Assembly (NCBI GenBank): GCA_937872465.1
Contig: CALMSR010000040.1
Location: 78,279 to 142,278 of the forward strand
DNA: 64,000 nucleotides
DNA from: an uncultured Rhodobacteraceae bacterium
GTDB lineage: Bacteria; Pseudomonadota; Alphaproteobacteria; Rhodobacterales; Rhodobacteraceae
Direction: 5' to 3'
A model generated the notes under the pieces. That model made no database searches and was not told the origin of the DNA. It saw only the letters and a program-made list of their open reading frames with translations. This document shows positions 30,432 through 57,512 of the stretch, in pieces; the stretch's first letter is position 1; each line of letters opens with the position of its first letter. Made by a program: the position numbers and the translations under genes.

Positions 30432-30698
30432 GGCAGCTCCCGCCGGCCCCGACGCCCGTGACGGGCCGCGCGCCCGATGCCGTCGTGCTCGGGAGCAATG
30501 GCGGGGGCCGGATCCCTTGATAGGCAGCGGGACGCCATCCCACAAGGCCCGCACGGCGCGGGTCGGCGGCGGGCGACCGGGATCCCGAATGCCCGGCACG
30601 AGGGCGCCGCAGCAGCACGAGAGCAGCGACCGTCCGGGGCGGCGCCTGTGCATTCCTCTCGGCACGGTCTGGATCGCAGGATCGCGGCCGCGGACGGG

Positions 30699-31970
30699 TC
30701 AGGCGATGCCGCCGCGGATCCCGGCGGTCCCGGCGTATTCGCGCAGCCGGACCGGGCGGCCGGAATCCGCGCTCTCGAGCGCGGCGATGCCGCAGAGGAC
30801 CGAGATCGCGCCGGCGCGGGAGCCGGCGCGCTGGCCGAGCGGGTCGGTGGCGCCGGGCCTGAACAGCATGTCGCGCAGCCGGTCGTCGCCGCCGTAGTGG
30901 CCGCCGGAGAAATGCGGCACGGCGATGCGCTCCACCGCCTCGCGATCGCCGGGGAAGCTGCGCACGAGCAGGATCTCGTCGTGGTCGGGCTTGTCCCAGG
31001 GCTGCCTCTCGTATTGGCGCAGCTCGATGCGCCCGCGCGTTCCGTTGAAGGCGATGTGGTGGCCCTCGACCGGCATCGCGGTGTTGAGCGAATAGGAGAC
31101 ATGCACGCCGTTCGCGTAGCGGATGGCGGCGACCATGGTGTCGGGGACGTCGATGTCCTCGCGAAAGACGCAGGCGTCGCGGAAATAGCCATCGACGCCA
31201 TGCGGATCCTCGTAGAGCGCGTCGAGGAACGGGTCGGCGCCGATGTCGAGATGGAAGCGGCATCGGGCGGCATGGGGACAGCCCTTGCAGCGGGTGCCGC
31301 GGAAGGGGCCGTTGCCTCCGTAGACCTTCAGCGCGGCGAAGGTCGTGACCGCCTCGGGATCGGACTCGAGGTACCAGTTCAGCACGTCGAAGTGATGCGT
31401 CGCCTTGTGGACGAAGAGGCTGCCCGAACGCGCGCGGAAGGCGTGCCAGCGGCGGAAGTAGTCCGCGCCGTGGCTGGTATCGAGATACCAGTGGAAATCG
31501 ACCGAGAGCAGCCTGCCGATCTCGCCGGACGCGAGCAGTTCCCGGATCCGCGCCGGGGTCGGGGCGAAGCGGTAGTTGAAGGTGACGTCGACCCGCCGGC
31601 CGCTCCGGCGCTCGGCCTCGAGGATGCGCGCGATCTTCTCGGGCGTGGTGGCCAAGGGCTTTTCGGCGATGACGTCGGCGCCGGCGTCGAGGGCGCGGAC
31701 GATGATCGTGTCGTGGGTGTCGTCGGGGGTGCAGACGATCACGAGATCGGGGCGCACGCCGCGGAGCATCGCGTCGAGATCGGTGAGGATCGGCGCGTCG
31801 GAGCCGATCATGGCGCGGGCGCGCTCGGCGCGCAGCGGGTTGGTGTCGACGATGGCGACCAGATCCACATGGTCGGACCAGCCCTTGAGCAGGTCCCTGC
31901 CCCACATGGTCGTGCCGCGGTTTCCGGTGCCGACGAGGGCGTAGCGTCGCTTGCTGGGCACGGGGGTCAC
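30699..31970 (-). CDS. Gfo/Idh/MocA family oxidoreductase
   Basis: YALVGTGNRG, AEKP, FNYRF, LFVHKATHHFD, HYGGD. Confidence 0.88.
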   Translation of the reverse strand: MTPVPSKRRYALVGTGNRGTTMWGRDLLKGWSDHVDLVAIVDTNPLRAERARAMIGSDAPILTDLDAMLRGVRPDLVIVCTPDDTHDTIIVRALDAGADVIAEKPLATTPEKIARILEAERRSGRRVDVTFNYRFAPTPARIRELLASGEIGRLLSVDFHWYLDTSHGADYFRRWHAFRARSGSLFVHKATHHFDVLNWYLESDPEAVTTFAALKVYGGNGPFRGTRCKGCPHAARCRFHLDIGADPFLDALYEDPHGVDGYFRDACVFREDIDVPDTMVAAIRYANGVHVSYSLNTAMPVEGHHIAFNGTRGRIELRQYERQPWDKPDHDEILLVRSFPGDREAVERIAVPHFSGGHYGGDDRLRDMLFRPGATDPLGQRAGSRAGAISVLCGIAALESADSGRPVRLREYAGTAGIRGGIA

Positions 31971-32078
31971 CTGTCCCGGGGCCGTGCCGGCGCGCCGGAG
32001 ACGCGCCCGGGCCGTGCGGCCGATCCGTGCCGGAGGATACCAAATACTCGGAGCGCTCGCGACACGGGAGGCCGGCGC

Positions 32079-32906
32079 TCAGCAGACCGTCCGGAACCGC
32101 TCGACGCAGGTGGCGAGCACCTCGTCGCCGGGGCGGCTCCACCAATGGTCGGAGAAGATCTCGACCTCCTGGGCACCGTGGAAGCCGGCGGCCTCGATCA
32201 TGGCCCGGAAGGCCGGCAGGTCGATGACGCCGTCGCCCATCATGCCGCGGTCGTTGAGTATATCCCGGGTGGGCACCAGCCAGTCGCAGATGTGGTGGGC
32301 GAGGATCGCGCCCATGCGCCCGGCGCGGGCGATCTGGTTGGCGAGGCCGGGCTCCCACCAGACGTGGTAGACGTCGATGGCCGCGCCGATCCCCGCGCCG
32401 CCCACCGCCTCGGCCATGTCGAGCGCCTGTTCGAGCGAGTTCACGCAGGAGCGGTCGGCGGCGTACATCGGGTGCAGCGGCTCGATGGCGATCGGCACGC
32501 CGGCGGCGCGGGCATGGGGCATCAGGGCGGCGAGGCCGTCGGCCACCATCCTGCGCGCCTCGGGGAGATCCTTCGAGCCGGCGGGCAGGCCGCCGCAGAC
32601 CATGACGAGGCAGTCGGCGCCAAGCTCCGCCGCCTCGTCGACGGCGCGGCGGTTGTCGTCGAGCGCCCGGGCGCGTCCCTCGGCGTCGGGCGCCGGGAAG
32701 AAGCCGCCGCGGCAGAGACCGGTGAGCTTCAGGCCGTTGGCGCGGACGATGCGGGCGGCCTCCGCGAGGCCGGTATCCGCGATCTGGTCGCGCCAGGGGC
32801 AGATGGTGGTGATGCCGTGGCGCAGGCAGGCATCGACGGCCTCGGCGAAGCTCCATTGCTTGCGCAGGGTGGCGAGGTTGATCGAGAGGCCGTCGAGATC
32901 CGCCAT
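32079..32906 (-). CDS. Sugar phosphate isomerase/epimerase (xylose-isomerase-like TIM barrel)
   Basis: AIEPLHPMY, IDVYHVWW, HHICDW, GMMGDGVID, EVEIFS metal-binding motifs. Confidence 0.88.
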   Translation of the reverse strand: MADLDGLSINLATLRKQWSFAEAVDACLRHGITTICPWRDQIADTGLAEAARIVRANGLKLTGLCRGGFFPAPDAEGRARALDDNRRAVDEAAELGADCLVMVCGGLPAGSKDLPEARRMVADGLAALMPHARAAGVPIAIEPLHPMYAADRSCVNSLEQALDMAEAVGGAGIGAAIDVYHVWWEPGLANQIARAGRMGAILAHHICDWLVPTRDILNDRGMMGDGVIDLPAFRAMIEAAGFHGAQEVEIFSDHWWSRPGDEVLATCVERFRTVC

Positions 32907-34069
32907 TACGCCACCCCGTGCACGGCGAGCACGCGCTTCATCCGCGCCACCGCCGCGTCCGAGTCGGCGAGGACGCGCGCCCGGTCGGCGAGGCGGAAAA
33001 GCTCCGCGAGATGCTGGAGCGAGCGGGCGCCCTGCTGGCCGCCGATCATGACGAAATGGTCCTGGAGCCCGTTGAGATAGGCGAGAAAGACCACGCCGGT
33101 CTTGTAGAAGCGGGTCGGCGCCGCGAAGATGTGGCGCGAGAGTGGGACGGTGGGTTCCAGCAGGTCGAAGAATTCGTTGTCGCTGCCGCGGCCGAGGGCC
33201 TCGAGCGCCGCCGAGGCGACCGGGGCGATGGCGTCGAAGATGCCGAGCAGGGCGTCGGAATGCCCCGCCTCGTCGCCGGCGATCAGTTCGGCATAGTTGA
33301 AGTCGTCGCCGGTATACATGCGCACGCCCTCCGGCAGGCGGCGGCGCATGGCGATCTCCTTCTCCTTCGAGAGCAGCGAGATCTTGACGCCGTCGACCCT
33401 GGCGGCATTGGCCGCGATCGCCTCGAGGCAGGTCTCCATCGCCGCCATATGATCGGCATGGCCCCAGTAGCCGGCGAGCGCGGGGTCGAACATCTCGCCG
33501 AGCCAGTGGATGATCACCGGCCGGCGCACCTCGGACAGGATGCGGTCATAGACGCGCAGGTAGTCGTCGGGCCCCTTCGCGGCGGCGGCGAGAGCGCGGC
33601 TCGCCATCAGGATCACCCGGCCGCCGGCGTCCTCGACCATGGCGACCTGCTCCTCATAGGCGCGCAGCACGTCGTCGATGGTGACCTCCGGGCCGGGCGC
33701 GAGGTGGTCGGTGCCGGCGCCGCAGGCGATCAGCGCGCCGTCGCGGCTGCGCGCCTCGGCCAGCGACCGGCGGATCAGCTCCTGGGCCTCGGGCCAGCCG
33801 AGCCCCATGCCGCGCTGGGCGGTGTCCATCGCCTCGGCGACGCCGAGACCGAGATCCCAGAGCCGGTGGCGGAAGGCGAGCGTGCGGTCCCAGTCGATCG
33901 CCGGGGTCAGCCAGGGATCGTTGTCGGCCAGCGGGTCGGCCACCACATGGGCCGCGCCATAGGCGATGCGCGGGAAGGACGCCGCCTCGCGCCGGGCGAG
34001 CGGGACCGGGGCGCCCGTGAGCTCGTAGGGGAGGATGGCGCCGTCTTGCGGCAGGTCGATGCTGGCCAT
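32906..34069 (-). CDS. DUF993 family protein (DHDPS-like TIM barrel)
   Basis: AAHVVADP, AEAMDTAQRGMG, HWLGEMFDP, KISLL, YTGDDFNY, HSDALLGIFD. Confidence 0.85.
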   Translation of the reverse strand: MASIDLPQDGAILPYELTGAPVPLARREAASFPRIAYGAAHVVADPLADNDPWLTPAIDWDRTLAFRHRLWDLGLGVAEAMDTAQRGMGLGWPEAQELIRRSLAEARSRDGALIACGAGTDHLAPGPEVTIDDVLRAYEEQVAMVEDAGGRVILMASRALAAAAKGPDDYLRVYDRILSEVRRPVIIHWLGEMFDPALAGYWGHADHMAAMETCLEAIAANAARVDGVKISLLSKEKEIAMRRRLPEGVRMYTGDDFNYAELIAGDEAGHSDALLGIFDAIAPVASAALEALGRGSDNEFFDLLEPTVPLSRHIFAAPTRFYKTGVVFLAYLNGLQDHFVMIGGQQGARSLQHLAELFRLADRARVLADSDAAVARMKRVLAVHGVA

Positions 34070-34072
34070 GGC

Positions 34073-35221
34073 TCAATACTCCAGCGCCGGCACGTCGAGC
34101 CAGCGGCGCTCGGCCCAGGACCTGCGGCCGAGCTCGGCGAGCTGCACGCCCCTGGCGCCGGCCTCGAGGCCGTAGGGCCAGGGCCCGTCCTCGGCGACGT
34201 GGCGCAGGAACATCTCCCATTGCGCCTTGAAGCCGTTGTCGTAGGCGGCCGTGTCCGGCACCTCCTCCCACTGGTCGTAGAAGTTCATGGTCTGCGGCTG
34301 GTCGGGGTTCCAGACCGGCTTGGGCGTGTTGACCCGGTGCTGCGTCCAGCACTTCGTGAGGCCCGCGACCGCCGAGCCGTGGGTGCCGTCGACCTGGAAG
34401 GTCACGAGGTCGTCGCGCCGGACGCGCACGGCCCAGGAGGAGTTGAACTGGGCGATGACGCCGTTCTCGAGCTCGAAGGTGGCATAGGCGGCGTCGTCGG
34501 CGTCGGCCCTGTAGGGCTTGCCGCTCTCGTCGATGCGCTCGGGGATATGGGTGGCGCCGAGGCAGGAGACCGCCTTGATCTCGCCGAACAGGCCGTCGAT
34601 CACGTAGCGCCAGTGGCAGAGCATGTCGAGGATGATGCCGCCGCCGTCGCCCTTGCGGTAGTTCCAGGACGGGCGCTGCGGGTCGACGCCCCAGTCGCCC
34701 TCGAAGACCCAGTAGCCGAATTCGCAGCGCACCGAGAGCATGCGGCCGAAGAAACCCGCATCGCGCAGGATGCGGAGCTTCCTGAGGCCCGGCAGGAAGA
34801 GCTTGTCCTGCACCACGCCGTGCTTGAGGCCGGAGGCGCGGGCCTTGCCGGCCAGCGCCAAGGCCACGGCGAGGTCGTCGGAGATCGGCTTCTCGCTGTA
34901 GATGTGCTTGCCGGCGTCGAGCGCCTTCGTGAGCAGGTCGGCGCGCATCAGGGTTGTGCCGGCGTCGAAGAAGATCGTGTCGTCGGGATCGGCGAGCGCG
35001 GCATCGAGGTCGGAGGACCAGCGCTCGATGCCGTGGCGGCGGGCCAGCGCCTCGATCTTCCCGGGATCGCGGCCGACGATGATCGGGTCGACCTGGAGCC
35101 GCCGGCCGGAGGCCAACTCGATGCCGCCCTGGTCCCGGATCGCCAGGATCGAGCGCACCAGATGCTGGTTGTAGCCCATGCGCCCGGTGACGCCGTGCAT
35201 GATGATGCCGATGCGGTCCAT
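34073..35221 (-). CDS. Gfo/Idh/MocA family oxidoreductase
   Basis: IIMHGVTGRMG, HIYSEKP, QDKLFLPG, GGIILDMLCHWRY. Confidence 0.9.
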   Translation of the reverse strand: MDRIGIIMHGVTGRMGYNQHLVRSILAIRDQGGIELASGRRLQVDPIIVGRDPGKIEALARRHGIERWSSDLDAALADPDDTIFFDAGTTLMRADLLTKALDAGKHIYSEKPISDDLAVALALAGKARASGLKHGVVQDKLFLPGLRKLRILRDAGFFGRMLSVRCEFGYWVFEGDWGVDPQRPSWNYRKGDGGGIILDMLCHWRYVIDGLFGEIKAVSCLGATHIPERIDESGKPYRADADDAAYATFELENGVIAQFNSSWAVRVRRDDLVTFQVDGTHGSAVAGLTKCWTQHRVNTPKPVWNPDQPQTMNFYDQWEEVPDTAAYDNGFKAQWEMFLRHVAEDGPWPYGLEAGARGVQLAELGRRSWAERRWLDVPALEY

Positions 35222-36336: not shown

Positions 36337-36602
36337 ATGAAGCGAAGCAGGTTCACCGAAGAGCAGATCATCGGGGTGCTGCGCGAGCAGGAGGCGGCGC
36401 GGCGGTCGCCGAGCTCTGCCGCAAGCACGGGATATCGTCGGCGACATTCTACGCCTGGAAGGCCAAGTTCGGCGGAATGGATGTGTCCGAGGCGAAGCGG
36501 CTGAAGGCGCTCGAGGCGGAGCACGCGAAGCTGAAGCGGCTCTACGCCGACGCGATGCTCGACAACGCCGGGCTGAAGGAGCTGCTGACAAAAAAATGGT
36601 GA
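36337..36602 (+). pseudogene. IS3 OrfA (HTH) with 1-bp deletion near 36397
   Basis: [20 protein letters not shown] in one frame, [26 protein letters not shown]...LLTKKW in another. Length 266 bp, one short of 267. Confidence 0.85.
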
Positions 36603-37525
36603 CGCCCGCCGCCAGGCGGGAGGCGGTCGCGCATCTCAAGGAGGGCCTCGAGGTGAGCGAGCGGCGGGCGTGCAGCATGATAGGCGCGGACCGGAGCGCG
36701 GTCCGCTATTGCAGCCGACGTCCCGACGATGCCGCGGTGCGCGCGCGGCTGCGGGAGCTGGCGGACCAGCGCCGGCGGTTCGGCTATCGCCGGCTGCATG
36801 TTCTGCTGCGAAGCGAGGGCCATACCTTGAACCGCAAGAAGACCCAGCGGCTCTACCGCGAGGAGGGGCTGGCGGTGCGCCGACGGCGGTCGCGGCGCCG
36901 GATCGCGGTGGCGCGCACGCCGATCCCGAGGCCCGAGGGGCCGAACTGCCGCTGGTCGACCGATTTCGTCCACGACCAGCTGGCCTGCGGGCGCCGGTTC
37001 CGGGTGCTGACGATCATCGACGATGTCACCAAGGAGTGCCTCGCGGCCGTCCCGGACACCTCGCTGACCGGCAAGCGGGTGGTGCGCGAGCTCACCGCGC
37101 TGATCGCGCGTCGCGGGCGACCGGACGTCATCGTCAGCGACAACGGCACCGAGTTCACCTCCTCGGCGGTCCTCGCCTTCACCCAGGCGGCGAAGCTCGA
37201 CTGGCGCTACATCGCCCCGGGCAAGCCGACCCAGAACGCCTTCGCCGAGAGCTTCCAGGGACGGATGCGCGATGAATGCCTCAACGAGCACCTGTTCTTC
37301 TCGATGAACCACGCCCGGGCTGTCCTCGCCGGCTGGGTCGACGACTTCAACACCGCGCGGCCCCACTCGGCGATCGGCTACATGACGCCCGCCGCCTACG
37401 CCGCGACCCTGAACCCGCAACGGGCATCGGCGCTGAGCCACATCGAAAGCTCCGCGCCGATGCCCGTTGCTACCGTCGCGCTCATGCGCAATTCTCAACC
37501 CCGGATTCCAGTGACCCCTGGATGA
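36596..37525 (+). CDS. IS3 OrfB DDE transposase
   Basis: [42 protein letters not shown]. Confidence 0.95.
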
Positions 37526-37607: not shown

Positions 37608-39128
37608 TCAGGCACTCGCCTCGCTCGACCCCTTCATCTTCCGCCGGATGACGCCGAAGAGCGGCAGGAGGATCAGGATGATCGCGATCACCGTGATCGT
37701 GCCCGCGATCGGCCGCGTGAAGAAGATCGACGGATCGCCGGAGGACAGGAGCAGCGACTGGCGCAGCGTGGGCTCGGCGATCGGGCCGAGCACGATGGCG
37801 AGCACGGCCGGGGCCAGCGGGTAGTCGAACTTGCGCAGGAAGAACGCGCTCAGCCCGAAGATCAGCATCAGCCAGACGTCGTGCATGTCGTTGGTGGCCG
37901 CATAGCCGCCGACCACCGAGAGCACGAAGATCATCGGTGCGAGGATGGTGAAGGGCATGCGCAGCATCCAGATGAAGAGCGGGATGAAGCTGAGGTTGAT
38001 GACGAGCGCGAAGAAGTTCGACACGTAGAACGAGCCGATCAGCCCCCAGACGAATTCGGGCTGGTCGGTGAAGAGCCGCGGGCCGGGGGTCAGGCCCCAG
38101 ATCACCATGCCGCCGAGCAGGATCGCCGTGGTGGGCGAGCCGGGAATGCCCAGGGTCAGCATGGGCAGCATCGAGCCGGTGGAGGCGGAATTGTTGGCCG
38201 CTTCCGGCGCCGCGACGCCGTCGGGGTTGCCCCTTCCGTAGGAATCCGGGTCGCGGCCGGTCATCTTGGCCACGCCATAGGCCATCAGCGACCCGGGCGT
38301 CGCGCCGGCGGCGGGAAGGATGCCGACGAAGAAGCCGAGGCCCGAGCCGATCGACATGCCCTTCCAGGCCTTGGCGAAGCATTCCCGCGTGTCCGCGACG
38401 ATGCCGGCGAAGGTCATCCGCGCCTCGGTGCTGGTGATCTTTCCGCGCGTGGTGTCGAGCGTCCAGAGCATCTCGCCGATGCCGTAGACGCCGATGGCGA
38501 GCACCAGGAAGTTGATCCCGTGCAGGAAGCCGGAGATGCCGAAGAAGACCAGCCGCGGCGCGCCGGAGATCTGGTCGAAGCCGACCGAGGCGAAGACCAG
38601 GCCGAGGCAGATCGACAGCACGGTCTTGGGGATGTCGTCGCCGCCGAGGCCGACGAAGGTGGCGAAGGCGAGCAGCATCAGCGCGAAGATCTCCGGCGGC
38701 CCGAAGCTGAGCGCGACATGCGCGAGCGGCGGCGCGAAGGCGGTGAAGAGGATGATGGAGACCGTCCCGCCGACGAAGGAGGCGATCGCGGCGGTCACCA
38801 GCGCGAGGCTGGCGCGGCCCTTGAGCGCCAGCGGCCGCCCGTCGAAGGTCGTGGCGACCGCCGTAGAGGCGCCCGGGATGCCGAGGGTGATCGAGCTGAT
38901 CGCGCCGCCGTACATCGCCCCGTAATAGATCGCCGCGAGGAAGATGATCGCCGAGGCCGGCGGCACCAGGAAGGTGATCGGCAAAAGGATCGCCACGCCG
39001 TTCACCGAACCGAGCCCGGGCATCGCGCCGATGAAGAGGCCCAGCGTCACGCCGACCACGATCAGCGCGATGTTCATCGGCTGGATCGCGAGAAACAGGC
39101 CGTGGCTGAGAAGTTCCAGAATTTCCAT
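37608..39128 (-). CDS. tctA: Tripartite tricarboxylate transporter large permease TctA
   Basis: GAMPGLGS, YYGAMYGG, AAPEAANNS, LTLGIPGS, GLTPGP. Confidence 0.93.
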   Translation of the reverse strand: MEILELLSHGLFLAIQPMNIALIVVGVTLGLFIGAMPGLGSVNGVAILLPITFLVPPASAIIFLAAIYYGAMYGGAISSITLGIPGASTAVATTFDGRPLALKGRASLALVTAAIASFVGGTVSIILFTAFAPPLAHVALSFGPPEIFALMLLAFATFVGLGGDDIPKTVLSICLGLVFASVGFDQISGAPRLVFFGISGFLHGINFLVLAIGVYGIGEMLWTLDTTRGKITSTEARMTFAGIVADTRECFAKAWKGMSIGSGLGFFVGILPAAGATPGSLMAYGVAKMTGRDPDSYGRGNPDGVAAPEAANNSASTGSMLPMLTLGIPGSPTTAILLGGMVIWGLTPGPRLFTDQPEFVWGLIGSFYVSNFFALVINLSFIPLFIWMLRMPFTILAPMIFVLSVVGGYAATNDMHDVWLMLIFGLSAFFLRKFDYPLAPAVLAIVLGPIAEPTLRQSLLLSSGDPSIFFTRPIAGTITVIAIILILLPLFGVIRRKMKGSSEASA

Positions 39129-39175: not shown

Positions 39176-39679
39176 TCAGTAGATGATGTCGTAGAGCACG
39201 TTGAAGACCGGGTCGGTGAAGCTCATCCCCTTGGGCAGGGTGATCCGCATCAGCGCCTCGAAGAAGAAGAAGAACACGATCGGCGTCGCGATCGAGATGG
39301 TCAGTGCCAGCCAGAGCGCGTGGCGTCCGAGGAACCAGAGGTAGTAGAACAGGAACAGCGCCATGGCGCCGTAGATCGAGATGACGTCGATCAGCGCCAC
39401 GAAGACGAAGATGCCGCCGCCGACCTGCAGCAGCATCCTGCGGCCGTCGGCGTCGAGCACCGGCTCGGTGGAGCGGGAAGGCGGAGAGGTCCGCCTTGCC
39501 CAGTTGAAGGCGATCACGATCGTGCAGACGAGCATGATGGCCGAGAGCCAGAACGGCCAGGCTCCGCCTCCCGGACCTTTGCCTGCGACATAGCCGATGT
39601 TCAGATCGGTACTCTTCCACATCATGTAGATGGACAGGGCGGCCAGGACAGCGGCCGTGACGATTTCGCCAAGTCTCAT
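39176..39679 (-). CDS. tctB: Tripartite tricarboxylate transporter small permease TctB
   Basis: Four TM helices, GPGGGAWPFW, located between tctC and tctA. Confidence 0.85.
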   Translation of the reverse strand: MRLGEIVTAAVLAALSIYMMWKSTDLNIGYVAGKGPGGGAWPFWLSAIMLVCTIVIAFNWARRTSPPSRSTEPVLDADGRRMLLQVGGGIFVFVALIDVISIYGAMALFLFYYLWFLGRHALWLALTISIATPIVFFFFFEALMRITLPKGMSFTDPVFNVLYDIIY

Positions 39680-39721: not shown

Positions 39722-40690
39722 CTACTCTTCCATGTTGGCGAGCAGTTCCTTGTGTCGCTCGACCTGGAGCTTCCAGTATTCCGCCTGCTCGTCGGGCGCC
39801 ATCCAGAGCGGCGACAGGCTCTCGGAAGCCATGTAGCCCTGCCATTCCTCGGAATCGTAGATCGTCTTGAAGAGGGTCTGGTAGTATTCGGCCGCCTCCG
39901 CGGACTGGCCCGGAGCGCCGACCACGGCGCGCTGGTTGTAGTAGCTGAAGTCCTGGCCCTTCTCCTTGACGGTCGGCACGTCCGGGAAGGCCGGAAGCCG
40001 CTCGTCGGAGAAGGCGACCAGCGGCACCACGTCGCCGGCCTCGTAGAAGCCCTTGGCCTCGGCGGGGTTGTTGACGCTGGCCATGATCTGCTGGCCGGCC
40101 AGATCCTTCGCGACCGCCCCGCCGCCGTCATAGGGGATGTATTTGATGTCGAGCCCGTAGGCGTCCCTGAGGAAGGTGATGACGAGCGAATCCTCCTGGC
40201 CGGTGCCGGTGCCGCCCATGACGTATTCGCCATTGGCCGCCTTCACGGTCTCCAGCCATTGCTCGAAGGTGGTGATGCCGCTGTCCTTGTGGACCCAGAG
40301 CACGAAGGGATCGACGCCCATCATCGCCACCGGCGTGAAGGTCGTGATGTCGACGCCGAGATCGGGCTGGCGCAGCGGCGTGGTGAAGAACGAGTTCAGC
40401 GTGACCAGGATCGTGTGGTCGGGATCGTTCGTGGTGTTGAGCGCGATCAGCGCCTCGGCGCCCGATCCGCCGCCCTTGTTGTTGGGCACCAGCGGCCGGC
40501 TGGTGAGATCATTCTTCTCGGTGACCGATTGCAGGAATCGGGCGATCTGATCCGCGCCGCCGCCGGCGCCGGCCATGATCACGAAGTCGACCGGCTTGGT
40601 CGGCTCCCAGGCCGATGCCGGCGTCACCGCCATCACGCCCAGCGCGACGGCGCCGGCCATGCCGGCCAGGATGTTGAAGTGCTTTGCCAT
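39722..40690 (-). CDS. tctC: Tripartite tricarboxylate transporter substrate-binding protein (Bug/TctC)
   Basis: Signal peptide, WEPTKPVDFVIMAGAGGGAD, NKGGGSG, IPYDGGG, VPTVKE. Start MAKHFNIL. Confidence 0.92.
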   Translation of the reverse strand: MAKHFNILAGMAGAVALGVMAVTPASAWEPTKPVDFVIMAGAGGGADQIARFLQSVTEKNDLTSRPLVPNNKGGGSGAEALIALNTTNDPDHTILVTLNSFFTTPLRQPDLGVDITTFTPVAMMGVDPFVLWVHKDSGITTFEQWLETVKAANGEYVMGGTGTGQEDSLVITFLRDAYGLDIKYIPYDGGGAVAKDLAGQQIMASVNNPAEAKGFYEAGDVVPLVAFSDERLPAFPDVPTVKEKGQDFSYYNQRAVVGAPGQSAEAAEYYQTLFKTIYDSEEWQGYMASESLSPLWMAPDEQAEYWKLQVERHKELLANMEE

Positions 40691-40803: not shown

Positions 40804-41661
40804 TCAGTGGTTGAAGATGACGGGCGTGGTGGCGGTATCGACCACCGTCTGGGTATTGCCCCCGAAGACGGTCTCGCGCTCGTGGCTGTCGCCATAGGCG
40901 CCCATCACCAGCATGTCCGCGCCGGCCGCGGCGCTGGCCTTCAGCAGTTCGCGGCCGGTCTTGCCGCGCGGGTCGAATTTCACGATCGTGGCGGCGATGC
41001 CGTGCAGGCGCAGGAAATCGACCAGATCCTCGGCCGAGGTTCCCGGACCGGAATCCGATCCGCTGGACAGGATCGAGACCGCGTCGGCGGTCCGCAGCAC
41101 GCTGATGCATTGCGACAGCGCCCGCGCCGCCTCCGCGCTGCCGTTCCAGGCGAGCGAGACATGCGCCCCGAGCGTCGCGGGCGGCGTCTCCGCATGCGGG
41201 CACATCAAGACCGGCCGCCCCGAGTGGAAGAGTGCTGCCTTGAGCGTATTGTGGCCGAGGTTGCGGTCCCGGTCGGGCTTGGCCACCGCGATCAGATCCG
41301 CCAGCCGGCCGCGGCGCTTGATGACGTCCACCTGGCGGCCGGCTTCGGCGAGAAACGCCACCGTCGCCGTCCGGCCGATGTTGTCGCCGGAATGGTCGAG
41401 CCTGAGCTTCTCCGCGAGCACCAGCACCTCCTCGCGCATCCCCTCCTCTTCCTGGTCGGCGACCTGGTAGGATTGCCGCACGATCTGATTGCGCAGGAAT
41501 TCCGGGATATGGACGCCATAGGGCATCAGATCCTCGGGGCGCGGCCGGCAATGCGCCACCGTGACATGGGCATCGTAGCGGTGCGCCAGCACCGCTGCGT
41601 GGGCAAGGACGTTGTCGCCCTTGCCGTCGCCTCGAACCGGAACCAGGATCGTGCGGATCAC
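40804..41661 (-). CDS. Universal stress protein (tandem USP domains)
   Basis: IRTILVP, AWNGSAEAARA, DMLVMGAYG...FGGNT. Confidence 0.88.
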   Translation of the reverse strand: MIRTILVPVRGDGKGDNVLAHAAVLAHRYDAHVTVAHCRPRPEDLMPYGVHIPEFLRNQIVRQSYQVADQEEEGMREEVLVLAEKLRLDHSGDNIGRTATVAFLAEAGRQVDVIKRRGRLADLIAVAKPDRDRNLGHNTLKAALFHSGRPVLMCPHAETPPATLGAHVSLAWNGSAEAARALSQCISVLRTADAVSILSSGSDSGPGTSAEDLVDFLRLHGIAATIVKFDPRGKTGRELLKASAAAGADMLVMGAYGDSHERETVFGGNTQTVVDTATTPVIFNH

Positions 41662-41674
41662 AGGCGGTTTCCTC

Positions 41675-43342
41675 CTAGAACAGGCCGTCGATGAGGCCGT
41701 CCTCGTTGATGCGGATGGTCTCCGCCGAGGGTTTGCGCGGCAGGCCGGGCATGGTCATGATCTCGCCGCAGATCACCACCACGAAGCCCGCCCCCGCCGA
41801 CAGCCGGACCTCGCGCACCGGCAGCGAATGGCCGCGCGGCGCGCCGCGGCGATTGGGGTCGGTGGTGAAGGAATACTGCGTCTTGGCCATGCAGACCGGC
41901 AGGTGGCCGTAGCCGTCCGCTTCCCATTGCTTGAGCTGGTCGCGGATCTTCTTGTCGGCCAGCACCTCGTCGGCGCGGTAGATCCGCTTGGCGATGGTCT
42001 CGATCTTCTCGAAGAGGCTCATGTCGTCGGGATAGAGCGGCGCGAACTGCGCCGACCGGCCCTCGACGAGCGAGACGACCTTGCGCGCCAGATCCTCGAT
42101 GCCGGCCGACCCCTTGGCCCAGTGCCTGCAGAGGACCGCCTCCGAGCCCTGGCTCGCCACGTAATCCTTGATCGCCTGGATCTCGGCCTCGGTGTCGGTG
42201 ACGAAGTGGTTGATCCCCACCACCGCGGGCACGCCGAAGCCCTTCACGTTCTCGATGTGCTGGCCGAGGTTGGCGCAGCCCTTCTTCACCGCCTCGACGT
42301 TCTCGGTGCCGAGATCCTCCTTCTTGACGCCGCCGTTCATCTTCATCGCCCGCACCGTGGCGACGATCACCACCGCCTCGGGCTTCAGCCCCGCCTTGCG
42401 GCACTTGATGTCGAAGAACTTCTCCGCGCCGAGATCGGCGCCGAAGCCGGCCTCGGTCACCACGTAATCGGCGAGCTTCAGCGCCGTGGTGGTGGCGACC
42501 ACCGAGTTGCAGCCATGGGCGATGTTGGCGAAGGGGCCGCCGTGCACGAAGGCCGGATTGTTCTCGAGCGTCTGCACCAGGTTCGGCTGCATCGCCTGGG
42601 CGAGCAGCACCGTCATGGCGCCGTCGGCCTTGAGGTCGCGGGCGTAGACCGGCGTGCGGTCGCGGCGATAGGCGACGATGATGTCGCCGAGGCGCTTCTC
42701 CAGATCCTTGAGATCCCGCGCGAGGCAGAGGATCGCCATGACCTCGGAGGCCACGGTGATGTCGAAGCCGGTCTCGCGCGGGAAGCCGTTGGCCACGCCC
42801 CCGAGGTTGCAGACGATCTGGCGCAGGGCGCGATCGTTCATGTCCATCACGCGGCGGTAGGGGATGCGGCGGATGTCAATGTCGAGCTCGTTGCCCCAGT
42901 AGATGTGGTTGTCGAGCATCGCGGCGAGCAGGTTGTGGGCCGAGGTGATCGCGTGGAAGTCGCCGGTGAAATGGAGGTTCATGTCCTCCATGGGCACCAC
43001 CTGGGACATGCCGCCGCCCGCCGCGCCGCCCTTCATGCCGAAGTTCGGCCCGAGCGAGGCCTCGCGGATGCAGATCGCGGCCTTCTTGCCGATGGCATTC
43101 AGCCCGTCGCCGAGGCCGACCGTGGTCGTGGTCTTGCCCTCGCCGGCCGGGGTCGGGTTGATCGCCGTCACCAGCACCAGATGCCCGTCCGGCCGATCCG
43201 CCAGCGACTTGATGAATTCTTCCGAGACCTTGGCCTTGTCGTGGCCGAAGGGCAGGAGATGCTCGTTCGGGATGTCGAGCCTGGCACCGATCTCCTGGAT
43301 CGGCTTCTTCCTGGCCTTGCGGGCGATCTCGATGTCGGACAT
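41675..43342 (-). CDS. fhs: Formate--tetrahydrofolate ligase
   Basis: [57 protein letters not shown]. Confidence 0.97.
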
Positions 43343-43371
43343 TCTTATGCTTCCTTGTGGTAAATCTGTAG

Positions 43372-44289
43372 TCAGTTGCCGAGGCTCTGGTTCGGTTCGA
43401 GCTGCACCAAGGCCGCCCATTCGGTTGCGCTCATCTTCGCCCCGCCCGGGGGGCGGACTCGCTTCATCAGGATGCGGCCGCCGACACATTGCACGGCGAC
43501 GCCGTCCTCCGAGATCCCCATCACCCGTGCCGAGATGCCGTCCCCCGGCACGCGGGCGCAGTCGAAGACGTCGATCTCCGCATCGCCGAGCGTGGTCCAG
43601 GCGCCGGGCGCCGGATTGGCGCCGCGGATCAGGTCGTAGACCTGCTTGACGGGCTTGTTCCAGTCGATCCGGGTGTGCCGGCGGGTGCAGCGGCGCTCGT
43701 AGGTGGCGCGGGCCTCGTCCTGTTCCCGGTGCGGGGGGCTGCCGGAGCGGTAGAGGTCGACCACCCTCAGCACAGAATCGACCGCCGAGGGGTAGATCTT
43801 CTTGAAATAGAGGTCGATCACCGTGTCGTCGGGCGCGATCTCGCATTCCCAGTCGAGCAGGACGTCGCCCTCGTCGAGCCCGTCGGAAGGATAGAACCAG
43901 CAATAGCCCGATTTCGTGCTGCCCATGATTATCGGCCAGTTCACCGCCGACGGGCCGCGATGCAGCGGCAGGAGCGAGGGATGGAAGCAGATCGAGCCCT
44001 GGCTGGGCGCGTCGCGCGCCGCCTCCGGCACGAAGACATTGACGAAGGCCATGATCATCAGGTCGGCCTCGAAGGCCGCGAGCTCGTCGATCGTCGCCTG
44101 CTCCTTGAAATGGGTCGGCTGCAGCACCGGCAGCCCCTTCCCGAGCGCGAAATCCTTGATCGGATCGGCCGGCCGGCCTTCCCGGTCGGGCTCGCAATAG
44201 ACGGCGACCACCTCGTCGGTGCCGGCTTCCAGGAGCCTCGCCAGCACATCCTTGCCGAACGCCTGCTGCCCCATCACGATCAAACGCAT
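43372..44289 (-). CDS. Formyltransferase-family protein resembling the N-terminal hydrolase domain of 10-formyl-THF dehydrogenase (not the housekeeping Fmt)
   Basis: [48 protein letters not shown]; no def neighbour. Confidence 0.8.
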
Positions 44290-44346
44290 CCGCTTTCCCC
44301 TTCTTGCGATCGCCCGGTCTCGCGCCGGGCCGCCGCTCCCCCGCCC

Positions 44347-45621
44347 CTAATCCGCCCCGACCGTCTTCGGCTCGCCCACCGCCCCGGAGCGGTACACCCG
44401 GTCCACCTCCTCGGGCGAATAGCCGAGCACCTCCGCGAGGATCTGCGCCGTGTGTTCGCCCAGCAGCGGCGAGCGCGTCACGTCCACGGGGCTGTCGGAC
44501 ATCTTGATCGGGCAGCCGACGCTGAGATACGGGCCGCGCTCGGGATGCTCGACCTCGACGATGGTGCCGGTGGCGCGAAGCCCCTCGTCCTCGGCGATCT
44601 CCTTCATGCTCAGGATCGGGCCGACGGGGATGTCGAGGGGATTGCAGATGTCCATGACCTCGAACTTGGTCTTGGTCATCGTCCAGTCCTCGATCGCGCC
44701 GAAGATCTGGTTCAGCCGCGGCAGGCGCGCCTTGAGGGTGGCGAAATCGGGGTCGGTCTTCCACTCGGGCTTGCCGATCACGTCGCAGACCTTCTCCCAG
44801 ACCGCGGCCTGGGTGATGAAATAGGTATAGGCGTTCGGGTCGGTCTCCCAGCCCTTGCAGCGCAGGATCCGCCCCGGCTGGCCGCCGCCGGAATCGTTGC
44901 CGGCGCGCGGGGTCGCCTCGCCGAAGGGGATGCCCTCGCCGAACTGCGAATATTCGGTGAGCGGTCCGGCCTCCAGGCGCTGCTGGTCGCGCAGCTTGAC
45001 CCGGCAGAGGTTGATCACCCCGTCCTGCATGGGGGCCAGCACCTTCTGGCCGCGCCCGGAGCGCTCGCGCTGGTAGAGCGCTGCGACGATGCCGAGCGCC
45101 AGATGCAGCCCGGTGCCGGAATCGCCGATCTGCGCCCCGGTGACGAGCGGCGGGCCGTCGAGAAATCCGGTGGTCGAGGCCGAGCCGCCGGCGCATTGCG
45201 CCACGTTCTCATAGACCTTGCAATCCTGGTACTTGCCCGGGCCGAAGCCCTTGACCGAGGCGACGATGATGCGCGGATTGATCTTCTGGATCGTCTCCCA
45301 GGAGAAGCCCATGCGGTCGAGCGCGCCGGGCGCGAAATTCTCCACCAGCACGTCGCAGGTCTCGATCAGCCGGGTGAGCACCTCTTTGCCGGTCTCGTTC
45401 TTGGAGTTGATCTCGATCGAGCGCTTGTTGTGGTTGAGCATGGTGAAATAGAGGCTGTCGGCCCCGGGCTTGTCGACGAGCTGCTTTCGGGTCGCGTCGC
45501 CGACGCCCGGCCGCTCGACCTTGAACACGTCGGCGCCGAGCCAGGCCAGCAGCTGCGTGCAGGTCGGGCCCGACTGCACATGGGTGAAATCGAGAACCTT
45601 GATGCCGTCCAGAGCTTTCAT
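44347..45621 (-). CDS. frc: Formyl-CoA:oxalate CoA-transferase
   Basis: [49 protein letters not shown]. Confidence 0.96.
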
Positions 45622-45664
45622 GTCGTGCTCCCTTCGATGCTTGATGGAATGAAGCAGGTGCCAA

Positions 45665-47410
45665 TCATTTCCTGGAAACGACGCTCTGCGGGTTGAGATT
45701 GCCGATGCGGCCGCTCTCGGTGCCGGCGGCGGGATCGATCACGGCGTTGATCAGGGTCGGCCGGCCGGAATCCATCGCCTCGTTCACGGCGCGGCGAAGC
45801 TCGTCGGGCGAGGTGGCGTTGACGCCGACGCCGCCGAAGGCCTCCATCATCCGGTCGTAGCGCGCGCCCGGGACGAAGACCGTGGTCGCCGCATCGGGGC
45901 CGCCCGAGGGATTGACGTCGGTGCCGCGGTAGATGCCGCCGTTGTTGAACACCACGACGCAGACCGGCAGGCGGTAGCGGCAGATCGTCTCGACCTCCAT
46001 GCCCGAGAAGCCGAAGGCGCTGTCGCCTTCGACCGCCAGCACCGGCTGGCCGGTCTCGATCGCGGCGGCGATGGCGGTGCCCATGCCGACGCCCATCACC
46101 CCCCAGGTGCCGACGTCGAGGCGCTTCCGGGGCCGGTACATGTCGATGATCGAGCGGGCGAAATCGAGCGTGTTGGCGCCTTCGTTGACGAGAATCGCCT
46201 CGGGCCGTTCCTTGATGATCGTGCGCAGCGCGCCCAGCGCCCCGTGGAAGTCCATCGGCACGTTGTTGTTCTGGAGCCGCGGCGCCATCCTGGCGACATT
46301 GGCCTCGCATTTCGCGCGGATCGCCTCGGTCCATTCCGCCGGCGGCCTGGCCCAGCCATCGCCCATCGCGTCGAGCAGCGCCGAGAGGCAGGAGGCGATG
46401 TCCCCGACCAGCGGGCCGGCGACGGGCAGGTTGCTATCCATCTCCTTCGGGTCGATGTCGATCTGGACGAAGGTCTTCGAGCCGGGCGCGCCCCATTGCT
46501 TGCCCTTGCCGTGCGACAGCAGCCAGTTCAGCCTGGCGCCGATCAGCATCACGGTGTCCGCTTCCTTCAGGGCCAGCGACCGCGCCGCGCCGGCGTATTG
46601 CGGATGCGTGTCCGGCAGGAGGCCCTTGGCCATGCTCATCGCGATATAGGGGATACCGGTCTTCTCGACGAAGCCGCGCACCAGATCGTCGGCCTGGGCA
46701 TAGGCCGCGCCCTTGCCGAGGATGATCAGGGGCTTCCTGGCCTTGCCGAGGATGTCGAGCGCCCGCTGGACCGCCGCGGGTGCGGGGAATTGCGCCGGCG
46801 CCGGATCGACCACCTCGACGAGCGAGGCGGCGCCCTCGGCGGCATCGATCGCCTGGCCGAGCAGCTTGGCGGGGAGGTCCAGATAGACGCCGCCCGGACG
46901 GCCGGAGAGCGCGGCGCGGATCGCCCGCGCCACGGCGATTCCGATGTCCTCGGCGTGCAGCACCCGGTACGCGGCCTTGCAGAGCGGCCTGGCGACGGCG
47001 AGCTGGTCCAGCTCCTCGTAGTCGCCCTGCTGGAGATCGACGACCTCACGCTCGGACGAGCCGCTGATCAGGATCATCGGCCAGCAGTTCGTCGTCGCAT
47101 GGGCGAGCGCGGTCAGCCCGTTCAGGAAACCCGGCGCGGAGACCGTGAGGCAGACCCCGGGCCGCCTGGTGAGGTAGCCCGCGATGGCGGCGGCATTCCC
47201 GGCGTTCTGCTCGTGCCGGAAAGAGATGACCCGCATCCCCTCCGCCTGCGCCATGCGGCCCAGGTCGGTGATCGGGATCCCCGGCACGCCGTAGATCGTG
47301 GTGATGCCGTTGAGCTTCAGCGCATCGATCACCAGGTGGAATCCGTCGGTCAGCTGGCCGGCCTCCGGTGCGGTTTCTTCGGTCGAGGGTGCGGTGCCGA
47401 ACGGCGCCAT
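45665..47410 (-). CDS. oxc: Oxalyl-CoA decarboxylase (ThDP)
   Basis: [55 protein letters not shown]...NNGG. Confidence 0.96.
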
Positions 47411-47516: not shown

Positions 47517-48233
47517 TCAGAGGGAGTCCGCCGTCGACTGGTTGATGCCCTCGAAGCGGGTCCAGGTGCGCCGGACATGATCGTGTAGCCGCATAGTGTG
47601 CTCGCGGACCAGACGCGACGCGCGGTCGGCGTCGCGTCGCTCCAGGGCTTCGATGATTTCCATGTGATCGACCACCGAGCGGCTGGCGCGATTGCCCTCG
47701 CCCATCGCCCGCCGCCGGACCGCATGCATATGCGCAAAGAGCGTATCGGCCGTGGTCTTGAGCAGCTTGCAGCCCGAGAGTTCGAGAATCCGCTGGTGAA
47801 ACCGGATGTTGGCGTCGGAATATTCCTCGAGCTCCGCCCGTTCGGCATCGGCGCTGTGCTTGACCGCGAACCTTCGGAGCTGCCGGAAATCCGCGTCGCT
47901 CGCCGCCTGGGTCGCCATCCGCGCCGCCATGCTCTCCAGCGCCGCCCAGGTCACCACCATCTCGAGAATCTCGTCGCGGGACTTGCGCTGGACGAAGACG
48001 CCCTTGCGCGGGAGAATCACGACGAGGCCCTCCTGCGCCAGCCGGGCCAGCGCCTCGCGAATCGGCGTGCGGGAGACCGCGAGCTGCTCGGCGAGCTTCC
48101 TCTCGTCCAGCCGGAGGTCGACGCCCGGCTGATAGATGTTCATCTTCAGGATGGCTTCGCGCAGGACCCCATAGATGTGGTCCTTCAGAGAGAAATTCTC
48201 CGAGATCGGACTGAGCGCATCCGTCAAGGACAT
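47517..48233 (-). CDS. GntR/FadR family regulator (probable oxalate regulon)
   Basis: [24 protein letters not shown]; FCD domain NIRFH...HMEIIEAL. Confidence 0.9.
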
Positions 48234-48281
48234 CGGGCTTCCCCTCCCCACCGCCCGCAGGATGGCGGACGGGTCGGCATC

Positions 48282-48306
48282 TGGTGTGCCGTAATCTGGC
48301 ATACCA
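48282..48306. promoter_or_regulatory. Possible FadR-type operators
   Basis: TGGTGTGCCG (48282) and TGGCATACCA (48297) resemble the TGGTATACCA palindrome. Confidence 0.4.
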
Positions 48307-56318: not shown

Positions 56319-57512
56319 CTATTCGGCGAGGAATTCCTCGATCAGGCCCGAGCACCGGTCCCAGGCCGGATCGGTTGCGGGAAGGATGTGATTGGTCGTG
56401 TCGAGGACCGCGAAGCGCGCCCCGGGGATGCCCGCCGCGAGCTCCTGCCCCTGGTCGAAGGGCACGCCCGCGTCGTGCCGCGAATGGATGACCAGCGTCG
56501 GCACCGTCACCTTCCCGAGCAGGTCCCGGATATCGACATCGCCATGGGCTTCGAGGATAGCCGCCGCGTTCTCGGCGGAGGTCGTCTTGCGCTGCAGGTC
56601 GGAGAACCAGTGCTGGCTCTCCGCCGGAGCGTCGGGCATGTAGAGGGCGGTGAAGAGCTGCCGCACCGCGGGATTGGTCCCGCCCCAGCCGACGCGGATC
56701 ATCTCGATCGCGGCGTGCCGCAGCACGGAGCCGTCCGGATTGTCCCGGCGCTTCCAGCCGCGGGCATAGCCGCCGAGCAGCACGAGCCGGGTGACCCTTT
56801 CGGGATGCCGCACCGCGTAATGGATGGCCTTCGCGCAACCCTGGGACAGCCCCATCATCGCGAAGCGCTTGAATCCGGCGTGATCCACCACGGTTTCGAG
56901 ATCCTCGATCTGGCGCTCGATACTGAAGTCGGTCACGTCCCATGCGGAGAGCCCCATGCCCCTGCCGTCGTAGCGCAGCAGGGTGTGCCGGCGCGCCAGC
57001 GCCCCGAACATGTGACGCCAGACCGGGCTTTCCCAATCGAAATCCAGGTGATGGAGCCAGTTCGCCGCCTTCACGAGCGGGGGGCCGGAGCCTGCCGTGG
57101 CATAGGCGATACGGGTGCCGTCGGGGCTGCGGCAATAGCGGATCTCCTGCCGGAGCGGGGCATCGGCGCCGGGTGCGCCGCCCGCCCGCGGGGCCTCCGA
57201 GGCGGTTTCCACGAGCGCGCCGACGAAGCGGAAGCCGCGCCCGTGCACGGTCCGAAGGTAGCGCTGTTCGTGGCCGTCGTCGCCGAGCGCCCGCCGCGCC
57301 GCGCTGACGGCGCTCGAGATGGCCGCGTCGGAGATGATGCGGCCCTGCCAGACCGCCTCGACCAATTCGTCCTTCGAGACCACGCGGTCCCGTGCGCCGA
57401 TCAGGTGCAGGATGAGGTCGAGAACCTTCGGCTCGATCCGGACAGGCGTGCCGGAGGCGACCAGCTCGCGCGTCGCACCATCGAGGACGAAGGAGTCGAA
57501 GACGTATCTCAC
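56319..57512 (-). CDS. Winged-helix (OmpR/CadC-type) plus alpha/beta-hydrolase fusion regulator
   Basis: IEPKVLDL..LI..RDRVVSKDEL...VW...RTVHGRGFRF; then DGTRIAY, RYDGRG, GLSQG, NH. Confidence 0.88.
   Translation of the reverse strand: MRYVFDSFVLDGATRELVASGTPVRIEPKVLDLILHLIGARDRVVSKDELVEAVWQGRIISDAAISSAVSAARRALGDDGHEQRYLRTVHGRGFRFVGALVETASEAPRAGGAPGADAPLRQEIRYCRSPDGTRIAYATAGSGPPLVKAANWLHHLDFDWESPVWRHMFGALARRHTLLRYDGRGMGLSAWDVTDFSIERQIEDLETVVDHAGFKRFAMMGLSQGCAKAIHYAVRHPERVTRLVLLGGYARGWKRRDNPDGSVLRHAAIEMIRVGWGGTNPAVRQLFTALYMPDAPAESQHWFSDLQRKTTSAENAAAILEAHGDVDIRDLLGKVTVPTLVIHSRHDAGVPFDQGQELAAGIPGARFAVLDTTNHILPATDPAWDRCSGLIEEFLAE

Follow-up and report, generated by a model that had tools for sequence, protein, structure and literature searches.

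What is a protein of the formyltransferase fold doing among genes for the degradation of oxalate? The question is raised by a stretch of 64,000 nucleotides (nt), here called the window, from an uncultured Rhodobacteraceae bacterium (contig CALMSR010000040.1), in which a gene for a protein of 305 amino acids (aa), here called X (43372-44289), lies between frc, encoding formyl-CoA:oxalate CoA-transferase (CoA, coenzyme A; 44347-45621), and fhs, encoding formate-tetrahydrofolate ligase (41675-43342). All three are on the minus strand, as is oxc, encoding oxalyl-CoA decarboxylase (45665-47410), which precedes frc. The products of Oxc are formyl-CoA and CO2, and to our knowledge the Oxc/Frc pathway is the only one that makes free formyl-CoA. 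Activated formate takes two forms in biology, formyl-CoA and 10-formyl-tetrahydrofolate (10-formyl-THF), and, besides the enzyme-bound reaction of HypX considered below, we know of no metabolic enzyme that interconverts them. An earlier reading of the window (the original prediction) had proposed such a role for X. Our analysis likewise suggests that X is most likely a formyl-CoA:THF formyltransferase, because an ALDH1L1-type active site is here combined with a genetic weld to the formyl-CoA pathway, and we give this exchange of formyl by X, from CoA to THF or back, a probability of roughly 0.55. The fold and catalytic residues of X, its exclusion from the methionyl-tRNA formyltransferases (Fmt) and its conserved genetic link to frc and oxc are matters of observation.

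Conserved association of X with frc and oxc

Genomic association is the strongest evidence in this analysis. An exhaustive HMMER search places X in a large superclade of bacterial proteins, 300-315 aa long and of the pattern 'GQxxFG...HPSLLP...SAINW', inside which the N-terminal domains (N-domains) of the eukaryotic 10-formyl-THF dehydrogenase ALDH1L1 are nested. We took 80 loci from each of four clades of this superclade (A-D) and mapped the Oxc, Frc, Fhs, Usp and GntR proteins of the window onto them; the frc/oxc count for clade D refers to 51 full-flank loci. Members of clade A are 73-96% identical to X and come from Rhodobacterales, Rhodospirillales, Hyphomicrobiales, Geminicoccales and a few Gammaproteobacteria; here Frc is encoded directly upstream of X in 78/79 loci, Oxc upstream in 72/74 and Fhs directly downstream in 59/66. 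The corresponding counts for clade B (~46% identical to X; Xanthobacteraceae, Reyranella and Rhodoplanes) are 70/74, 58/62 and 70/72. Frc or oxc was found in 49/51 loci of clade D (~39% identical; Methylobacterium and Comamonadaceae). In 27 Methylobacterium genomes the order is frc-X, and an OxlT antiporter and a GntR regulator are encoded close by; in 30 Comamonadaceae genomes X-tctCBA is followed, after two other genes of which one is on the opposite strand, by oxc-frc. Clade C (~40% identical; Candidatus Binataceae) is unlinked, with Frc in 0/77, Oxc in 0/70 and Fhs in 0/71 of these positions, and its conserved neighbours, a 341-aa predicted protein and a 621-aa protein, include none resembling Oxc, Frc or Fhs. 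The original prediction had staked its case on linkage of the homologues of X to oxc and frc, and such linkage is present in three divergent clades, which between them cover Alpha-, Beta- and a few Gammaproteobacteria.

The oxc-frc-X-fhs gene order, recurrent in ~150 species-level genomes, is far beyond chance, and it is the Frc/Oxc pair that accompanies X in all linked clades, whereas Fhs is frequent but clade-specific. Most loci of clades A and B have a GntR homologue encoded upstream of oxc. The gene usp, for a universal stress protein, comes after fhs in most clade A loci, or after X in those that lack fhs, and does not occur in clade B. The tctCBA transporter genes were found in 55-57/80 clade A loci and 14-18/80 clade B loci, as well as beside X in Comamonadaceae. 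The other recurrent neighbours, namely TctCBA or OxlT transporters, subunits of NAD-linked formate dehydrogenase and, in many clade A loci, a divergent sucCD paralogue with a PanE-like reductase, are all tied to oxalate or one-carbon (C1) metabolism. A full-text literature search, which was not exhaustive, found no description of an oxc/frc-linked formyltransferase or of this gene association and returned HypX papers only.

Three operons of the form gntR-?-frc-X-fhs carry another thiamine diphosphate (ThDP) enzyme in the oxc slot (L043:4885-6624, L136:4692-6470 and L150:4396-6312). This enzyme shares 25-26% identity with Oxc, and the NCBIfam models that match it best (PRK05858 'acetolactate synthase', 434 bits; 2-hydroxyacyl-CoA lyase, 346-355 bits) all score below cutoff. 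The chemistry of 2-hydroxyacyl-CoA lyase also yields formyl-CoA, and the enzyme may be an alternative source of this thioester, which is only a hint.

Two departures from the common arrangement were also recorded. Clade B members L102 (6259-10381), L116 and L120 have no oxc, frc or fhs nearby and lie between a gamma-glutamyltransferase gene and a divergent gene resembling that for serine hydroxymethyltransferase (SHMT; 290 bits, cutoff 335), with a BKACE-family enzyme encoded just upstream in L102. One metagenome-assembled genome (MAG) of the Gammaproteobacteria has a second ALDH1L1-like paralogue, 42% identical to X, directly after fhs (L011:5475-6434), with a GlnA-like gene ~1.7 kb beyond it on the opposite strand.

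The active site of X and its relatives

X consists of the Pfam domains PF00551 (Formyl_trans_N, 87.7 bits, cutoff 26.1) and PF02911 (Formyl_trans_C, 66.8 bits, cutoff 21.1), and Pfam finds no second domain beyond this pair. The features that the original prediction had picked out are all in the translation: the motifs GQQAFG (residues 7-12), ADP (41-43), DGLDEGD (136-142) and ATYE (195-198), together with a 19-residue stretch (100-118) and a 10-residue stretch (148-157); the spacing of 36 residues between His103 and Asp139; and Cys101, two residues before His103 (C101-F-H103), at the position of the Fmt Asn (INVH). Across 81 close relatives of X, His103, Ser105 and Asp139 do not vary.

The likeness to ALDH1L1 was also borne out, the top PDB sequence matches of X being the ALDH1L1 N-domains of human, rat and zebrafish (E 7e-53 to 5e-49), followed by weaker matches to Fmt (1e-38 and weaker), ArnA (~1e-21) and HypX (1e-6). 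The alignment to the ALDH1L1 N-domain covers residues 1-245 and is full-length over the catalytic subdomain (2BW0, 1S3I), with His103, Ser105 and Asp139 of X corresponding to His106, Ser108 and Asp142 of ALDH1L1. X and the ALDH1L1 N-domain (PDB 1S3I, 2BW0, 4QPD) share the HPSLLP...SA(I/V)NW, DGLD.GD, PDDTV and ATYE motifs and the identically spaced His/Ser/Asp triad, and neither has an Asn two residues before the His. The ALDH1L1 N-domain takes the formyl group off 10-formyl-THF, and the group leaves on a 4'-phosphopantetheine thiol (PMC8748788; PMC6802093), in agreement with the facts about ALDH1L1 on which the original prediction drew; the acceptor used by this member of the fold family is thus a pantetheine thiol (PMC8748788). 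Residue contacts between the N-domain and the pantetheine arm were sought, and the cryo-electron microscopy paper resolves the arm in the C-terminal domain only. ALDH1L1 differs from X in having carrier and aldehyde-dehydrogenase domains, whereas X is a stand-alone bacterial protein encoded in an oxalate operon, with fhs next after 29 nt, and bears a GQQxFGK / NWP / N225 signature that ALDH1L1 lacks; the pantetheine arm of ALDH1L1 is tethered, whereas the thiol used by X would be that of free CoA. Judged by sequence, X is a homologue of the ALDH1L1 N-domain, not an ALDH1L1. The UniRef name of the Lutibaculum baratangense orthologue (P0089) is 'Aldehyde dehydrogenase', a name carried over from ALDH1L1 to a protein with no dehydrogenase domain.

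A second relative provides a precedent for the chemistry. The N-domain of HypX (HoxX; PDB 6J0P), which synthesizes the CO ligand of O2-tolerant [NiFe]-hydrogenases, produces formyl-CoA by moving the formyl group of 10-formyl-THF to CoA, as proposed from its structure (PMC6802093) and confirmed by experiments summarized since (PMC12134894), and no other enzyme has been reported to carry formyl between these two compounds. Exchange of formyl between the CoA thiol and N10 of folate thus has a precedent in this fold, and the view of the original prediction that such a transfer had not been described does not hold. HypX shares with X the fold and the His/Asp pair, and is matched by X in both sequence (E 1e-6) and fold (Foldseek E 7e-15). 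It is distant, at 16-18% identity in Foldseek alignments to six HypX entries, and differs from X in being fused to an enoyl-CoA-hydratase-like decarbonylase with CoA as a bound cofactor, in keeping its formyl-CoA on the enzyme, and in working in one direction, for cofactor biosynthesis rather than carbon metabolism. No hyp genes were found in the window, where the neighbours of X are frc and fhs. What is known, then, is the fold, the triad and the thiol-formyl chemistry; a free-standing metabolic enzyme linking formyl-CoA to the folate pool, and conserved in the oxalate operons of hundreds of species of proteobacteria, would be new.

A model of X built with AlphaFold2 (mean predicted local distance difference test score 85.4) was compared with known structures using Foldseek, which ranked ALDH1L1 first, followed by Fmt, ArnA and HypX, with similar scores for ALDH1L1 and Fmt. 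Since the two are ranked equally, the fold does not settle the substrate of X.

Cys101 was considered as the mechanistic key and rejected. The residue two before the catalytic His is Cys in clade A, Gln in the frc-linked clades B and D, and Cys again in the unlinked clade C, so this Cys does not account for the family's link to formyl-CoA. Five positions, Q9, G12 and K13 (GQQxFGK), P119 and N225, are common to clades A, B and D and absent from clade C, ALDH1L1 and Fmt.

X is set apart from Fmt, PurN and PurU

Publicly, X-type genes are named 'methionyl-tRNA formyltransferase' (NCBI, JGI) or fmt_2. Fmt does have the PF00551 plus PF02911 architecture, the 10-formyl-THF pocket and the His and Asp of X. 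Its hallmarks are missing from X: the catalytic Asn (N-x-H), present in all nine genuine Fmt representatives that we aligned, is replaced by Cys, and X, like every relative of the HPSLLP type, is five residues short at the insertion PDRPxGRGxxxxxxPVK, which recognises initiator tRNA. X is acidic (net charge -11), scores 134.6 bits against the Fmt equivalog model TIGR00460, under its cutoff of 201.5, and belongs to a clade of its own; in neighbour-joining trees the Fmt clade has 100% bootstrap support and X falls outside it. Grouping with housekeeping Fmt, which the original prediction had said would count against it, was thus not found. Strain La 6, a cultured marine member of the Paracoccaceae, has the orthologue on a 180-kb plasmid under the name 'fmt_2', next to 'fhs_2', a naming that implies a separate fmt elsewhere in the La 6 genome. 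Because of the sub-cutoff score, the absence of both Asn and tRNA loop, the separate clade and the La 6 fmt_2, the public name is almost certainly wrong. As to the other folate-dependent formyl enzymes, X scores just 33 bits against the PurN model, and the Pfam and family-model searches gave no match of X to PurU models and no ACT domain in it.

Proposed activity and its direction

X would catalyse the reversible reaction formyl-CoA + THF <-> 10-formyl-THF + CoA, using the His103/Ser105/Asp139 triad and the folate pocket that it has in common with ALDH1L1, and would thereby join the thioester formyl pool made by Oxc to the folate formyl pool made by Fhs. Transfer to or from a pantetheine thiol is suggested by homology, taken together with the formyl-CoA context, and we infer CoA as the thiol partner, the reversibility of the reaction and its physiological direction.

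We regard the two directions as about equally likely. Running forward, from formyl-CoA to 10-formyl-THF, X would make a branch point of formyl-CoA: the Frc arm would give formate and, through formate dehydrogenase, energy, and the X arm would feed folate and, through FolD/GlyA, biomass. Oxalate carbon would in this way reach FolD/GlyA and serine-pathway assimilation while bypassing free formate, and X would also free CoA once oxalate is exhausted. In the reverse direction, formate, ATP and CoA would be converted into formyl-CoA by Fhs and X, and Frc would hand the CoA to oxalate, so that the three together would amount to an ATP-driven oxalyl-CoA synthetase in which formate is catalytic. Such a system would serve to prime the Frc/Oxc cycle and to make good any thioester lost when formyl-CoA is hydrolysed or oxalyl-CoA reduced, and the four operon genes would be enough for net ATP-driven synthesis of oxalyl-CoA; as an account of the operon, this direction fits no worse than the forward one. 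That both elements hold together, namely a widespread free-standing and reversible formyl-CoA:THF formyltransferase and an ATP-driven oxalate-activating loop with Fhs and Frc in which formate and folate are catalytic, seems to us a tentative proposition, somewhat short of an even bet.

The cycle has a documented need for priming, and formyl-CoA is labile, being hydrolysed with a half-life of 1.9 h (PMC3720670). For Escherichia coli, the acetyl-CoA:oxalate CoA-transferase YfdE (UctC) has been put forward as the primer, and as an accessory enzyme encoded beside frc and oxc that supplies an acyl-CoA in the absence of formyl-CoA (PMC3720670) it is a possible functional analogue of X. YfdE has an unrelated fold, that of class III CoA-transferases, and draws on acetyl-CoA rather than on ATP through Fhs and folate. 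The gene for X follows frc in loci without a YfdE-like gene: no second CoA-transferase of the YfdE type was found within 8 kb in 160 X loci.

Energetics do not fix the direction, because both directions cost equal ATP per assimilated carbon (counted per assimilated C3). Hydrolysis of a thioester is more exergonic than that of 10-formyl-THF, and on our own estimate from textbook values, with the energy of 10-formyl-THF hydrolysis estimated from the near-equilibrium Fhs reaction, the standard free energy should favour conversion of formyl-CoA to 10-formyl-THF by ~10 kJ/mol. We estimate cellular CoA to be millimolar and formyl-CoA micromolar, and the reverse reaction should therefore be feasible when formyl-CoA is scarce. 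The original prediction had presented X as an 'ATP-free' route for oxalate carbon into the folate pool, which is misleading, because Frc needs formyl-CoA for the next oxalate and each formyl-CoA diverted from it leaves one oxalate for other activation; a thioester is spent either way, with no net saving.

Another possible source of thioesters is encoded close by in many genomes. Some 40 of the 80 clade A loci (e.g. L058:156-3500) have a sucC-sucD paralogue followed by a gene for a 353-aa protein with weak similarity to ketopantoate reductase (PanE-like, 28 bits), divergent from the gntR-oxc operon. The two could be an ADP-forming CoA ligase and an oxalyl-CoA reductase. This gene set is absent from the window.

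Several observations weigh against a formyl-CoA:THF formyltransferase. The ALDH1L1 N-domain and HypX use a tethered or permanently bound pantetheine, not free CoA, and X has no recognisable CoA-nucleotide-binding domain. The comparison of folds gives X no separation from Fmt, and the sister grouping of X with sequence P0122 has only 65% bootstrap support. The partnership with Fhs is not universal, fhs being absent downstream in 7/66 clade A loci and within 8 kb in the clade D loci, and the nearby sucCD paralogue in many clade A loci could supply CoA thioesters otherwise. Finally, there is no net ATP saving either way, and the selective advantage of X is one that we infer.

Were the proposal true, pathway maps of aerobic oxalate use, a sizeable carbon flux in soils and the sea, would need revision. 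The joint action of X, Fhs and Frc would explain how the Frc/Oxc cycle is primed in aerobic oxalotrophs and where their net oxalyl-CoA comes from, and X would determine how much formyl-CoA is oxidized and how much is assimilated through folate. ALDH1L1 would gain a functional bacterial relative, and its eukaryotic N-domain would descend from bacterial enzymes already using a pantetheine thiol. A systematic misannotation, 'methionyl-tRNA formyltransferase' on this gene in hundreds of genomes, would be corrected, and synthetic C1 pathways would gain a direct bridge from formyl-CoA chemistry to the folate pool.

Alternative functions

The alternative that survives best is that X formylates some other acceptor linked to oxalate, such as an amine metabolite, the pantetheine of a carrier protein or a side chain (e.g. 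the active-site aspartate of Frc). The superfamily is versatile, with Fmt, ArnA, sugar N-formyltransferases and the formylation domains of non-ribosomal peptide synthetases among the matches of X, and the gamma-glutamyltransferase and SHMT-like neighbours in L102, L116 and L120, together with the GlnA-like gene near the L011 paralogue, could point to such acceptors. We nevertheless consider it unlikely: an acyl-carrier-protein gene cannot fit the operon gaps of 13-57 nt, no conserved amine- or sugar-forming gene stands beside X in 240 linked loci, and formyl-CoA is the sole formyl-bearing metabolite common to all contexts.

A 10-formyl-THF hydrolase (deformylase), releasing formate and THF in the manner of PurU and so balancing Fhs or freeing THF, would make use of the same His/Ser/Asp triad, which X has kept, and the isolated ALDH1L1 N-domain, which goes by the name 'hydrolase domain', does hydrolyse 10-formyl-THF in vitro (PDB titles; PMC6802093). 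In the full-length enzyme, by contrast, the formyl group leaves this domain on the 4'-phosphopantetheine thiol (PMC8748788). Beside Fhs, a deformylase would set up an ATP-wasting futile cycle, yielding formate that is already an abundant product of Frc; X moreover lacks a PurU match and an ACT domain, and its conserved partner in three clades is frc/oxc, the source of formyl-CoA, not fhs. Taken together, these points make a deformylase decidedly improbable. That X is a second methionyl-tRNA formyltransferase, as its automatic names, its domain architecture and a fold match to Fmt as strong as that to ALDH1L1 might suggest, is scarcely credible for a protein with the score, Cys substitution, missing insertion, charge and tree position described above, which is encoded next to frc and fhs rather than def and, as 'fmt_2', on an accessory plasmid in La 6. 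Formyl exchange between CoA and THF is the function that we prefer for X.

The oxalate operon and its surroundings

The four core genes of the window are securely assigned, Oxc by NF006721 (1002 bits, cutoff 557) and TIGR03254 (991 bits, above cutoff), Frc by TIGR03253 (696 bits, cutoff 504) and NF003809 (706 bits, above cutoff), and Fhs by PF01268 (892 bits) and NF010030 (927 bits, cutoff 652). The cluster is headed by a gene for a GntR/FCD-family regulator (47517-48302; Pfam GntR and FCD), and beyond fhs come usp, a tandem universal-stress-protein gene with two Usp stretches (40804-41661), and tctC (39722-40690), tctB (39176-39679) and tctA (37608-39128), each recognized by the Pfam model of its name; the order on the minus strand is thus gntR, then oxc-frc-X-fhs-usp-tctCBA. 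Successive gaps from oxc to usp are 43, 57, 29 and 13 nt. The oxc start codon is the ATG at 47410, with AAGGAG just before it, the sole sigma-70-like site of the region (48330-48303) lies before the regulator gene, and the coding strand is free of terminator-like sites between the start of oxc and the end of usp, the only ones being inside tctB, inside tctA and after tctA at 37549-37533. Oxc-frc-X-fhs-usp-tctCBA is a tight operon. The original prediction had the order and common orientation of oxc-frc-X-fhs right and the extent of the operon too short, as the operon continues through usp and tctCBA to 37608. TctCBA, a transporter of the tripartite tricarboxylate type, is likely the oxalate importer.

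The window has a G+C content of ~70% and is chromosomal, because it contains the housekeeping genes rpsA, aroA and lysS. Its nearest genome record is a Rhodovulum sp. MAG, whose operon proteins are 96-100% identical, and near-identical DNA is present in activated-sludge metagenomes; the sequencing runs that contain the sequence are DNA metagenomes only, from activated sludge and anaerobic digesters.

A different setting is seen in strain La 6, in which the operon lies inside a metabolic island on plasmid pLA6_002 (CP031587.1, ~44-91 kb; loci L241-L243). The island encodes two formate dehydrogenases, two sucCD paralogues, ppc, ppdK and a ketopantoate-reductase-like (PanE-like) gene, along with glyA2, a serine-glyoxylate-aminotransferase-like (sga-like) gene, hprA_2, folD_2, a methylene-THF-reductase-like (metF-like) gene, folA and folB. 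It appears to be a portable oxalate and serine-pathway module, an assignment that draws on general knowledge of oxalate metabolism in Methylobacterium, and by analogy it looks like a system in which oxalate would be assimilated via glyoxylate and a folate-bound C1 unit through the serine pathway.

Other genes of the window were noted in passing. An integrase gene of the insertion-sequence type (rve/rve_3 and HTH_21; 36596-37525, plus strand) abuts the end of tctA, and beyond it the gene content is unlike that of related loci. About 16 kb from the oxalate operon is a gene for an FdsA-like molybdopterin formate-dehydrogenase alpha subunit of 1013 aa (22905-25946, minus strand) with N-terminal 2Fe-2S and 4Fe-4S domains. 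A cluster at 30699-35221 (minus strand) encodes two GFO/IDH/MocA oxidoreductases, a xylose-isomerase-like TIM-barrel protein and a DUF993 protein (621 bits), and is preceded by an open reading frame (ORF) of 673 aa (28644-30665) that has no Pfam match. Finally, two adjacent ORFs on the minus strand (56319-57512 and 57655-59505) each start with an OmpR-type Trans_reg_C DNA-binding domain, fused in one to an alpha/beta-hydrolase and in the other to a LysR helix-turn-helix and TPR repeats; these are unusual architectures or artefacts of ORF calling.

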